Positions 27,181 through 59,595 of a DNA stretch of 64,000 bases are shown piece by piece (the first letter of the stretch is position 1; every line of letters begins with the position of its first letter). The position numbers were made by a program, and so were the translations under genes. The DNA comes from Eledone cirrhosa (Eukaryota), in NCBI GenBank assembly GCA_964016885.1, contig OZ024755.1, positions 38,564,001-38,628,000 on the forward strand. The letters run 5' to 3'. Below the pieces are notes generated by a model that was not told where the DNA came from, searched no databases, and saw only the letters and a program-made list of their open reading frames with translations.

Positions 27181-27371
27181 TAACGAAGGAAATGTGGTAA
27201 GGAACCAGGTGGACCATAACGCACCAAAGTACTCAATACTTGAGGTAGTAGAGTGGGTAATAGGAACCAGTAAGACCCCGACAGCTGAGCTCAAGCCGTT
27301 TCGACGGCTAATTCTGAGAATTAGCCGTCGAAACGGCTTGAGCTCAGCTGTCGGGGTCTTACTGGTTCCTA
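27181..27371. mobile_element. TA-flanked foldback element, family A (55-bp arms centred at 27316)
   Basis: Perfect inverted repeat 27261-27315/27317-27371 containing TTTC...GAAA-CGGC-TT-GAGCTC; same family at 59391-59595, 53073-53232 and 52160-52220. Confidence 0.9.
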
Positions 27372-27456
27372 TATATATATATATATATATATATATTTAA
27401 AAGAATAGAGGTGTAAATATATATATATACATATATATATATATATATATATATAT

Positions 27457-28125
27457 GTAAATATCTTTAAGTCGTTTGGAAGCCTCGACAATGCAAATGG
27501 GTAAATCTCCGGGTAACAAGGTCCGGTGGTGGAGAGAGAGATGTAAGTGGGTGTACGTTGAGATGCGTGGTGTGTATAAGATGTGTAGAATGAAGGGAAG
27601 AGTAAAAGGATAAAAATAAAAATAACAACACAAGAGAGAGTTACCTTGGGAGAGATTTAATAGTCCCTATATATTTCGGATTCACATCCATCAACTGGGG
27701 GTTTTTTCCGGGGTGGGGGAAAAGGTTGTCTGTCGGACAAGTCCGGAAGGCGTCTTTCGCTGTTTGTTGACAGCGAAAGACGCTTTCTGGACTTGTCCGA
27801 CAGACAACCTTTCCCCCACCCCGGAAAAAACCCCCAGTTGATGGATGTGAATCCGAAATATATAGGGACTATTAAATCTCTCCCAAGGTAACTCTCTCTT
27901 GTGTTGTTATTTTTATTTTTATCCTTTTACTCTTCCCTTCATTCTACACATCTCACACATCTTATACACACCACGCATCTCAACGTACACCCACTTACAT
28001 CTCTCTCTCCACCACCGGACCTTGTTACCCGGAGATTTACCCATTTGCATTGTGGATGCTTCCAAACGACTTAAAGATATTTACTTATTGTTCCACAATG
28101 CTTCAAGCAAACTTCAATACTCTCA
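27457..28125. mobile_element. TA-flanked foldback element with ~310-bp arms centred ~27766
   Basis: Arms 27457-27763 and 27770-28084 are near-perfect reverse complements (mirror ORFs MCCYFYFYP on both strands); each arm has a hammerhead-like variant. Confidence 0.92.
27831..27868 (+). ncRNA. Atypical hammerhead-like motif (core CAGUUGA); mirror copy ~27664-27701 on minus
   Basis: CCC-CAGTTGA-T-GGAT gtga ATCC-GAAA-TATA-TA-GGG: topology intact, but two core substitutions. Confidence 0.45.
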
Positions 28126-28237
28126 TATATATATATATATATATATATATATATATATATATAACATATTAAGATGACAGAAAGCAATTCTTAAATTATG
28201 TTATCCTTATTACAATCACAAACTCAATAGAAATAGA

Positions 28238-29700
28238 TGTGAATTCAGTAATTGGGGAATTAGAATATGAACAAGCCTACAGATATCTAGGGATAAATGA
28301 AGGCCAAGGGATTCACCACGCCAGCATGAAAGAGAGAATGAGGAAGGAATGCTACTGGAGAGTATGTGCTGTCATGAAAACAGAACTTAACTCGAGAAAT
28401 AAAATATCTGCCATAAATACACTTGCAATCCCAGTTGTGACCAACAGTTTCAATATCATAAATTGGAACTTTAACGAAATTAAGAAAATGGACATAAAAA
28501 ATCAGGAAACTTTTGACCTGTAATAAACTATATCACCCACAAGCAAATGTGGATCGCCTCTATCTCCCTAGACAAAATGGAGGTAGAGGAATGATCCAGC
28601 TAGAATTTTCGTATATGATATCGACTATTGGACTCAATCAGTACTTTAAAACCACAAACAACTGGATGATGAAAATGGTTGCAGTTCACAAAGGAAGGAA
28701 GAGGTTACATTCAGTCACAAAGGAAAGTAGGAAGTTTGTGGAAGAACTGGGAATACAGTTTGAAAATAATAATGGCGATTCTGCAATTAAAGCCGCAGAG
28801 AATATCAAAGTGTTGTCAAAATATGAAAACTCTGCACTAATGGGAGCAAAAACCACCTCATGGGTAGTATGTTCTTCGTTGCAAAGAACCTGATGTAGAT
28901 CAAACTCTCAGCCATCAGTGGCTACGGAGCACTGGGCTAAAGGAAGAGTGAGGGCTTCAGTTTGGCTGCAGAAGACCAGTGTCTTTCAACGTGCAACTTT
29001 CAAGCCAATATGATCAGAAATGGAACTGACCAAAAGTGTTAATTCTGCGATGAGCATGTTGAGACCATTATGCAACTAGTTACAGGCTGCGCGGTATTAG
29101 CTGCCCAGGAATATAAAACGAAGCATGATAGAGTAGGGCAATACTTACACTGGATTTTATGGTCTGAAAATGAAGGGAAAACTGTACAACCATCACCCAG
29201 ATGCAGTGACAGTAGGCGAGAACGCAAGAATCCTCTGGGATTTCCCTGTGAATACTGACAGAACAATCAAGGCCAACAGACCTGATATAATTGTGAAGGA
29301 CCATAAAGAGAAAACATGTTACTTAATTGACACGAGCATTCCATCAGATTGTAATATCTCCTCAAAAGAGTTTGGAAAGCTCAGTAAATATAAAGATCTA
29401 TCAATTGAAATTGAGAAAATGTGACCCCTTAAGGCCTGTACAATACCAATGATAGTCAGCGCACTTGGAATTATAAAAAAGGGAACTGAAATATATTTGG
29501 ACCTGATACCTGGAAAACAATCTCTGCAAGAAATACAGAAAATAGTGCTCACTGGTACTGCCCATGTCCTAACAAGGACATTATCAATTTTAAAATCTTT
29601 GGAATCTGTTGTTTGTGCCCTTGTGGTATCTTTTGTGTGACAATTGATTGTAAAATGTGAGAATTATCAAATTTTGCCTCAGGTGCCAGCTTGACACTTC
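28238..29700 (+). mobile_element. 5'-truncated R4/Dong-type non-LTR retrotransposon (RT C-terminus, zinc knuckle, restriction-like endonuclease), frameshifted
   Basis: YRYLGI, AINTLAIPVV, VDRLYLPRQNGGRG, HDRVGQYLHW, ILWDFPVNTDRTIKANRPDIIV...LIDTSIP...KLSKY motifs across broken ORFs. Confidence 0.88.
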
Positions 29701-29734
29701 GCATGATTTGGAAAGAAGCAGAACTCAATAATTC

Positions 29735-56927: not shown

Positions 56928-58250
56928 GTGGTTCACTTGTTACGACCAACATTACAACAATAGGAGCAGATGTGAAGTTAGGACATGTCTTTGTGTGGTT
57001 GACTTGTTACGACCAACATTACAACAATAGGAACAGATGTGAAGATAGGACAAGTCTTTATGTGGTTCACTTGTTACGACCAACATTACAACAATAGGAG
57101 CAGATGTGAAGTTAGGACATGTCTTTATGTAGTTCACTTGTTACGACTAACTTTACAACAATAGGAGCAGAGGTGAAATTAGGACATGTCTTTATGTGGT
57201 TCACTTATTACGACTAACATTACAACAATAGGAGCAGATGTGAAGATAGGACATGTCTTTATGTGGTTCACTTATTACGACTAACTTTACAACAATAGGA
57301 GCAGAGGTGAAATTAGGACATGTCTTTATGTGGTTCACTTATTACGACTAACATTACAACAATAGGAGCAGATGTGAAGTTAGGACATGTCTTTGTGTGG
57401 TTCACTTATTACGACCAACATTACAACAATAGGAGCAGATGTGAAGTTAGGACATGTCTTATGTGATTCACTTGTTACGACCAACATTACAACAATAGGA
57501 GCAGATGTGAAGATAGGACAAGTCTTTTTGTGGTTCACTTGTTACGACCAACTTTACAACAATAGGAGCAGATGTGAAGATAGGACAAGTCTTTGTGTGG
57601 TTCACTTGTTACGACCAACTTTACAACAATGGGGTTTTTAGAATAATTTAGACACTGAGAAGAACGAAACTCCAGAATATAGAATTCAAGTTGTTCACAC
57701 ATTCACTGATGTAAGACCTTGGATACATCTCTAGTGTTGTATCATGGAGTCAGTGGGACTTTATACGGGTGTAATAACAGATACACACACACTCACACAC
57801 ATCCGCCGCCCCCCCCCCTATATACTTACACACACACTCGCACTCCCCATATATACTTACACACACATATATATTTGTGAAACAGCAGATATACACATAC
57901 ACACACATATATATATACACACACATATATATATACACACACATATACACACATGTATACACACATAAGTATATACACACATATATAGTCACATAGATAC
58001 ACCTTATATATGTATTTACAAATATACACACATACTTTTGGAGCAGATGTGAAGTTAGTCTTTATGTGGTTCACTTGTTACGACCAACATTACAACAATA
58101 GGAGCAGATGTGAAGATAGGACATGTCTTTATGTAGTTCACTTGTTACGACCAACATTACAACAATAGGAGCAGATGTGAAGATAGTACATGTCTTTATG
58201 TAGTTCACTTGTTACGACCAACATTACAACAATAGGAGCAGAGGTGAGAC
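56928..58250. repeat. 67-bp minisatellite interrupted by a ~400-bp insert (57631-58038)
   Basis: Unit GTGGTTCACTTGTTACGACCAACATTACAACAATAGGAGCAGATGTGAAGTTAGGACATGTCTTTAT; preceded by a SINE-like segment at 56805-56927. Confidence 0.93.
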
Positions 58251-58254
58251 AGTC

Positions 58255-59300
58255 CTCATAGTAAACTCACAGCAAATCTACAAACACTGCTGAATAAAAT
58301 TGAAAGAATGTCATGGGAATATAGTCTGGAGATCAACATCAAAAAGACAAAAGTAATGGCAGCAACTAGACAGAAGGTAGAAATGAACATAGGTTGCCAA
58401 GGTGCCAGGCTTGAACAAGTCGAGAAGTTCAAATACGTTGGTTCAAAACTTGAGCAGACGGCAGAGGGAAGTTGGGAAATAAGGGTGAAACTAGCAACTG
58501 CAAGAACAGTCTTGAGCACTCTCGGCAGTCTTTGGATGGATAGAGCTCTTACAAAGTACCCAAAAGAAAGTAATCAAAACATTAGTGTGGCCAGTAGCTC
58601 TATAAGGTTGTGAGTTGAGGACTTTAAAGGCATCTGACTTAAAACGACTGAGTGTATTTGAAATGTCATGCTATAGGTGTGCACTTAGAATTAGCTGGAC
58701 AGCTCACAGAACAAATGAATCTGTCCTGAAAGAGATTGGTGCCAATTGACAGTTGGTTGAAACAGTAAAGAAGAGGTAACTTCAGTATTTTGGTCATGTC
58801 ATCAGGCCCCAAAATTTGACTACCCACATCCTTGGGGGACGAATACAAGGGAAAAGGCCAGGGGACGGCAGAAAAGGAGATGGAGAGATGATATTAAGGA
58901 AGGGACAGGAGGGAGGAATACAGGGGAAAAGGGCCAGGGGACGGCAGAAAAGGAGATGGAGAGATGATATTAAGGAATGGACAGGAGGGAGGAATACAGG
59001 GGAAAAGGGCCGGGGGATGGCAGAAAAGGAGATGGAGCGATGGTATTAAGGAAAGGACAGGAAGCAGGAATACAGGGGAAAAGGGCCAGGGGATGGCAGA
59101 AAAGGAGATGGAGAGGAATACAGGGGAAAAGGGCCAGGGGTCGGCAGAAAAGGAGATGGAGAGATGATATTAAGGAAGGGACAGGAAGGAGTCTGGTGGA
59201 ATGTACAGCAATGGCAAGAGACAGGAAAAGATGGAGAGTGCTGGTCCATAAGTCTTTGACCCCCGACCCTCAGATATAAGGATGAGATGAGGCTAGGCTA
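58255..59300 (+). mobile_element. 5'-truncated RTE/BovB-like LINE 3' end
   Basis: LEINIKKTKVM, LEQVEKFKYVGS, LQYFGHVIR, GRIQGKRARGRQKRRWRDDIKEWTG, ARDRKRWRVLV; frameshifts. Confidence 0.88.
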
Positions 59301-59390
59301 TACACACATATATTCACACACATGCAGACATGTATATGCAAACAGACACACACATGTAAACACAGATATATATATATATATATATATATA

Positions 59391-59595
59391 ACGGAGGAAA
59401 TGTGGTAAGGAACCAGGTGGACCATAACGCACCAAAGTACTCAATACTTAGGGTAGTAAAGTGGGTAATAGGAATGAGTAGGACCCCGACGGCTGAGCTC
59501 AAGCCGTTTCGACGGCTAATTCTGGACTAAGAATTCGTCCAGAATTAGCCGTCGAAACGGCTTGAGCTCAGCCGTCGGGGTCCTACTCGTTCCTA
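59391..59595. mobile_element. TA-flanked foldback, family A (~59-bp arms, loop 59528-59536)
   Basis: Homologous to 27181-27371; perfect inverted arms 59469-59527 and 59537-59595. Confidence 0.9.

Follow-up and report, generated by a model that had tools for sequence, protein, structure and literature searches.

Head-to-head stubs of Penelope-like retroelements in the genome of Eledone cirrhosa and their possible origin from two separately primed cDNAs

A stretch of 64,000 nucleotides from Eledone cirrhosa was analyzed (assembly GCA_964016885.1, contig OZ024755.1, forward-strand positions 38,564,001 to 38,628,000; hereafter the window, numbered from its first letter). It contains a series of palindromes, which are back-to-back stubs of Penelope-like retroelements (PLEs) inserted in TA repeats. 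It appears, with a probability of roughly 0.7, that each arm of a palindrome is a separate cDNA that was primed on the sense RNA, ran off the probably capped 5' end of this RNA, and was then joined to its partner. The structures themselves are ordinary for the class, and their layout is already known. Inverted, 5'-truncated copies with a one-sided tail have been described for PLEs (PMC8557442, available text). A first-pass annotation of the window had proposed that a single TA-primed cDNA primes its own second strand at a ribozyme hairpin. The polarity that it reported is right and its mechanism is mostly wrong; the account given here is better supported and is testable.

The origin of the inverted ends of PLEs is a stated open question (PMC8557442), and the later steps of insertion are left open in the available text of PMC11167929. 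The junctions described below are a base-level test between models. Neither arm contains the other, both arms share an initiator-like stop, and a cap-like G is possible on both. The favored reading predicts the transcription start of five families, with the sense mRNA as template, and it explains why most copies are stubs of 130-500 bp. If it is true, the genome holds tens of thousands of reaction products per family, and these would locate the promoter with single-base precision and speak against self-priming on antisense RNA.

Polarity, turn points, and the extra G

Exact searches of the 3-Gb genome found 34,216 matches for the family A tail word, 41,427 for the family A end, 1,125 for family B, and 38,471 for family E; a pattern search found 13,042 for family D. 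For the polarity tally, families A, B, and E each contributed their first 100 rows in positional order, and neighbors at most 5 kb apart were counted as pairs. Family D was excluded because its search pattern sits in the tail. There were 67 head-to-head, 8 tail-to-tail, and 10 tandem pairs (p ~1e-12). Head-to-head polarity therefore exceeds chance by far. Arm typing was possible for 64 of the 67 head-to-head pairs: 59 joined a tail arm to a short arm, three joined two tail arms, and two joined two short arms. Thus, the earlier observation that the RNA 3' ends face the TA flanks holds with the sense strand set by linked open reading frames (ORFs), and the arm that had been noted as usually longer is the one that carries the fixed PLE tail.

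Arm ends of family A were placed by eye in 90 of the first 91 position-ordered rows (the other row is the partner tail of another copy), and 77 of these are two-armed. Positions are counted from the short end. Loci chosen with a query that contained a junction were excluded from this tally and from the cross-family test for G. Position 52 is reached by 64 tail arms, 55 of which stop by position 64, and by 59 second (tail-less) arms, 55 of which likewise stop by 64. Nine tail arms and four second arms pass this wall. The second arm is longer than the tail arm in 35 of the 77 copies, equal to it in 10, and shorter in 32. Since the short arm has no tail, neither arm can have been the template of the other in those 35 copies. 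The excess of the second arm is at least 10 nt in 15 of 77, approximately 550-870 nt in loci L086 and L101, and above 1 kb in L230. Snap-back from the tail arm requires a loop of 3 nt, for which only 22 of the 77 junctions leave room.

Other families also have a wall. The family D sample had 30 loci, 19 of them two-armed; an arm ends at one particular base in 12 of the 19, and both arms end there in eight. In five of the 19, the tail arm ends inside the tail and the two arms share no sequence. A non-overlapping pair is also present in the window (47642-47888). For family C, 30 loci were selected by similarity to the tail, and an arm ends at the start base in 10 of the 12 that are two-armed. 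Independent short-read contigs from one sample show depth that rises about 25-fold at the family A wall. Loose ends are present there and at the two 3' ends, and joints between opposite strands connect the wall with mid-tail.

The five walls read TT-A-GTC, TC-A-GAT, TC-A-TTA, TC-A-TAT, and TT-A-GTT, each an initiator-like pyrimidine-A, and the first ATG follows about 200-350 nt downstream (231 in family A, 202 in family E). Family D has its wall 69 nt before CUGAUGA, families C and E at the 5' end of stem I, and family A inside an extended stem II. Thus, the wall has no common location relative to the ribozyme. The coordinates of the turn points in the first-pass annotation are correct, but their reading as positions on ribozyme hairpins is wrong. 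The turns at 27316, 53130, and 59532, called hairpin turns, belong to three copies of family A and lie at the wall or within about 6 nt of it. The turn at 27766, placed on a hairpin just 5' of GAAA, is about 8-10 nt short of the family B start. The turn at 50102 is indeed at the 5' end of stem I; this is also the start base of its family, as is 53927, a turn that had gone unmapped. As had been said, 47453 is inside stem II, and it is the only turn located there away from a start. Two structures, 44371 and 52683, have no symmetric turn, and their arms are separated by 124-178 and 138 nt, respectively.

An extra base is frequently found at the wall. In family E, the base before the wall differs from the templated T in 2,770 matches, and in the first 100 of these it is G (68), A (20), or C (12). 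Fifty rows were removed because the base could be explained by the other arm, a duplication, read-through, the partner's extra base, or a duplicate locus. Among the 50 unambiguous rows, G precedes the start A in 41 (p 2e-12 against one third), and none of these 41 has a G at -2. Five family E junctions have the form C-x-G, with a single base between, and none has the form C-x-A or C-x-C. Both arms of these five bear the extra base, and a gap of one base is too tight for a hairpin. The window has two copies with an extra G, at 50103 (family C) and 53128 (family A). Predicted DNA folds of the last 45 nt of the cDNA gave no hairpin that includes the end in families A, C, and E.

Both arms of one insert stem from the same subfamily. 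In 56 of the 77 two-armed family A copies the arms could be compared, and 23 of the 56 are identical across 28 nt, against 9% between copies. Private haplotypes are common to both arms in 1 of 24 cases, and one RNA and two sister RNAs are indistinguishable as the source.

Two side observations concern the junctions. In L112, L117, L137, and L079, a short interspersed nuclear element lies at the inferred family C start base, on the same strand and with the start motif duplicated; this may reflect shared descent or a preferred target. The junctions of L160 and L228 hold 13-14 nt of poly(A) or poly(T) filler.

A proposed route and its alternatives

Turns that cluster at one base per family, together with a frequent extra G, suggest that the two halves were copied separately up to the start of the RNA. 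In the proposed route, the endonuclease would nick both strands of the TA target. Each nick would prime reverse transcription at a short site or at a tail site; these two delimit the tail and lie 60-360 nt downstream of where the element's own mRNA starts. As the sites are so near to this start, both cDNAs would in most cases extend to the cap and end there with an extra C copied from it, and stubs would result. The two cDNA 3' ends would then be joined through 0-7 nt of microhomology or with the help of a few bases that are added or re-copied from nearby, and self-complementary words of the ribozyme stems would be no more than convenient joints. If the RNA were a read-through transcript and one primer instead fell on its downstream pseudo-long terminal repeat (pLTR), the product would be the long copy known from textbooks, with a pLTR that is inverted and truncated at its 5' end. 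This could account for long arms such as those of L329 and L332, where a short inverted tail arm stands opposite 2.5-3 kb of sense sequence. The odds also lean toward a wider statement, that the inverted pLTR and tail of endonuclease-containing (EN+) PLEs arise by twin priming on capped sense mRNA and that the copied cap is kept as G on one or both arms. Snap-back may be a minor route.

Parts of this route have precedents. In twin priming of L1, two target primers on the RNA give an inversion, and the internal second primer leaves parts that do not overlap; here, in contrast, both primers would use fixed sites and the arms overlap. An untemplated G at the L1 initiator has been read as a mark of the copied cap (PMC9341517 and PMC2831318, available text). 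The Penelope pLTR is described as housing an internal promoter with an initiator (PMC2377424, available text). In vitro, the Poseidon PLE protein PAc nicks and extends both strands of an AT-rich target and starts at two internal RNA sites that bound the tail; the available part of this study does not follow the 5' ends and their joining, and RNA ends at the ribozyme site were not found (PMC11167929). The first-pass annotation had likewise proposed a Penelope-like origin, TA targets, and sense RNA copied from fixed 3' points, and these proposals are supported. The present inserts resemble the EN+ PLE insertions described in the available text of PMC8557442 and PMC3846280 in their head-to-head arms, one-ended tails, partial tandems, microsatellite targets, and palindromic junctions. 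They differ in that the tails are 40-135 nt rather than 30-40 nt and that family A stubs outnumber long copies about 25-fold. Those texts, as available, do not put the junction at a capped start. Open-access literature searches, with the supplements of PMC11167929 and PMC8557442 outside their scope, returned no PLE junction placed at a capped start and no cap-like G there.

Several observations weigh against this reading. The start site and the cap are predictions from DNA. Arm stops of family A are spread across a 13-nt window and not at a single base, and a C replaces the start A before GTCC in at least eight family A copies (among them window 59536-59540, L173, L203, and L167). The family B start rests on three to four junctions. 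The G tally of family E was manual and becomes 31 of 40 once ten rows whose G might stem from a TATG flank or local re-copying are removed. Family D is blurred by TA overlap; 100 rows had 45 G, 46 T, and 9 A, and most of the T come from the overlap. A test run automatically across families gave a weak signal, with G in 10 of 18 cases at the start and in 23 of 86 at other places (p 0.025); rows of another D subfamily were among its input, and it overlooked known cases. Snap-back would also predict the subfamily match of the arms, its geometry fits the 22 of 77 junctions mentioned above, and short fold-back inserts do occur.

An alternative that is improbable, although the best placed of those considered, is that the arms were copied from RNA but that the wall marks arrest of the reverse transcriptase or an uncapped RNA end, with the G due to terminal-transferase addition of C. 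Reverse transcriptases do add C at template ends. A wall in the extended stem II (A) or at the 5' end of stem I (C, E) would also suit an arrest, and the start and cap are predictions from DNA. However, all five walls suit a pyrimidine-A initiator located where the promoter of the ORF must be, the added base is a single G, and the predicted cDNA folds of families A, C, and E offer no hairpin that includes the end.

Self-priming of one cDNA at a ribozyme hairpin, the main route of the first-pass annotation, has little likelihood. Short fold-back copies do stand at some junctions (window 52790-52895, L195, L006, L022), a few turns fall in self-complementary 4-6-mers of the ribozyme stems (47453, L183, L122), the second arm of L193 is just 10 nt, and the tail arm is longer by at least 3 nt in 22 of 77 family A junctions. 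Matching subfamilies in the two arms are expected as well. However, a copy cannot exceed its template, and in 35 of 77 copies part of the second arm has no counterpart in the first. Arm pairs without overlap, a wall common to both arms, and C-x-G junctions, where both arms carry the extra G, also contradict it. Family D turns 69 nt upstream of its core, and no canonical core was seen in family B.

It is very unlikely that snap-back made the palindromes and that later, uneven deletion of their centers masks the shape. Long palindromes are unstable, and deletions between internal repeats are present in the tail arms of L226, L229, and L200. Nevertheless, second arms that reach positions 62-64 would require tail arms past the wall, and only nine of 90 pass it. 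Deletion would not insert a G at one base across several families, and near-identical arm pairs are equally asymmetric.

Antisense RNA is a still poorer candidate. Head-to-head palindromic junctions were attributed in 2013 to self-priming on an antisense template (PMC3846280, available text), and, after this published interpretation, a master palindrome could also be imagined to yield a hairpin RNA that is then retrocopied. Finished palindromes do duplicate locally in tandem (L036-L039). However, the extra base is a sense-side G at a sense-strand initiator, and each copy has its own junction. A single master palindrome for family A was dropped for this reason, and L036-L039, considered as a tandem retrozyme of family A, was rejected as a local duplication of a completed palindrome. 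Finally, fold-back chimeras are a known artifact of assemblies and libraries, but this explanation is next to impossible here, with fixed ends, TA on both sides, private differences between arms (private haplotypes shared in 1 of 24), and short-read contigs that show identical ends and opposite-strand joints.

Families, ORFs, and ribozymes

Five families could be linked to Penelope-like ORFs, of which A, C, D, and E are Hydra-like and B is canonical. ORFs of 645-808 aa with reverse transcriptase and C-terminal GIY-YIG motifs are tied to A, B, D, and E, and a thumb fragment is tied to C. Pfam matched RVT_1 only, in one of the four proteins. Partial tandems (L324, L328, L334, L336, L339) have the order start base, short end, tail, and ORF; the sense strand is thus set by the ORFs, independently of ribozyme words.

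The motifs suggest that families A, D, and E belong to the Hydra clade. As in that clade (PMC8557442, available text), all three have DKT, the CxCx5C linker, no CCHH, and (TA)n targets, with a C-terminal GIY-YIG domain; A and D also have CxxC and CxH flanking E and N, and the family E ORF copy stops before the last motifs. The three families differ from the clade, as described there, in having RW followed by R or I in place of RWK, tandem units of 3.1-3.7 kb rather than under 3 kb, and, in A and E, non-canonical hammerhead cores.

Families C, D, and F appear to possess type I hammerheads with canonical cores (CUGANGA, GAAA, NUH, and stems I-III) and a palindromic stem III. It had been expected that family A would have GAGCTC followed by CTGANGA upstream of its central hairpin. 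CUGANGA was found in none of the 46 read-through family A copies, most of which read CUGAGAA, an outcome that the first-pass annotation had itself named as contradicting its proposal. GAGCTC is the loop of stem III and not stem I. In family A, the GUC site is intact, as are stem I (ACCCC/GGGGU) and stem III with its GAGCUC loop. PLE hammerheads with an extra base between positions 9 and 10.1 are known (PMC4209133, available text). The family E core is CAGAAGA with U at the cleavage position, and it is conserved at very high copy number (window 52895-52965; 38,471 genome matches). No CUGANGA box was seen in family B. The GAAA listed for 27457 is not conserved in the family (most copies have GAAG or GGAG) and is therefore not a hammerhead core. 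An Rfam scan of the window gave no hammerhead among the 150 of 169 matches listed, and only hairpin-type chance hits among those.

Ribozyme structure might set an end in only one place. Ten of 29 early family A tail-arm ends are at positions 17-20, the predicted cleavage site (p 0.0004), against one of 17 second arms. These ends may come from cleaved RNA or may merely reflect a CCCC/GGGG joint. In L324 (3349 and 6467), the inferred family A start falls within the family's own ribozyme, so that only read-through RNA would carry the complete motif.

Family F has tandem units of 310 bp, each with a putative type I hammerhead and without an ORF. This is also the case for non-LTR (long terminal repeat) retrozymes (bioRxiv 10.64898/2026.07.22.740005, available text; see also PMC7229834); in contrast, family F has two arrays that face apart, with a short end and a tail end. 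Its short arm extends about 190 nt beyond the tail arm. The mirrored order of its unit variants (Table 1) indicates a linear multimer, and not a monomeric circle, as the template.

Inserts of the window

A self-comparison of the window recovered each of the nine inverted structures that had been noted earlier, at their places, as well as an additional one at 44041-44313. TA repeats flank all of them. The two arms of the nine structures noted earlier have 0-10 mismatches. Seven families are represented (Table 1).

Table 1. Two-armed inserts of the window, by position.
Coordinates	Family	Arms	Turn or junction
27183..27371	A, stub pair; tied to a Hydra-like ORF	Antisense tail arm left (77-nt tail), sense short arm right	Arms halt 4-5 nt before the inferred start base
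27457..28125	B, stub pair; canonical hammerhead core not found	Short arm left, tail arm (~40-nt tail) right	Turn at 27766, with ~8-10 nt lacking up to the inferred start
44041..44313	G, palindrome; absent from the first-pass list	One-sided 33-nt tail	
44371..47121	F, 310-bp hammerhead tandem (retrozyme-like)	4.7 antisense units, then 4.2 sense units; short end left, 50-nt tail right	No symmetric turn; unit variants in identical order (G,G,T,T) inward from either end
47150..47622	C, variant	Tail arm left	Turn at 47453, a self-complementary hexamer within the long stem II
47642..47888	C, two-armed insertion	55 nt of antisense tail plus a sense arm that contains a putative complete hammerhead	Zero overlap; sense arm starts at the inferred start base (47697)
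49763..50278	C, stub pair		Both arms run up to the inferred start base, where stem I has its 5' end; the start A (50104) follows an untemplated G (50103)
52683..53061	E, CAGAAGA core variant	Short arm left, passing the start base by ~100 nt	Short fold-back copies, then tail arm starting 3 nt before the start A (52898)
53075..53243	A, stub pair, other subfamily	Short arm left	Start A (53129), preceded by untemplated G (53128), is the first base of the tail arm
53673..54183	D, pair	Tails on both arms	Arms share ATAT (53925-53928) where the start base is inferred, with CUGAUGA 69 nt downstream
59391..59595	A, stub pair	Tail arm left, short arm right	Ends of the two arms within 2 nt of the start base; short locally copied insert

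Other repeats are also present in the window. Two smaller and older palindromes without a clear family are at 55803-55883 and 42924-43013. A single-armed copy of the family E tail is tandemly duplicated together with its TA flank (26442-27171). A single-copy relative of the 310-bp unit, about 78-80% alike, is at 50360-50680; such relatives are numerous in the fetched loci, where some form inverted pairs. A 65-bp satellite with 364 copies, 95% matches, and higher-order variants occupies 1078-24710.

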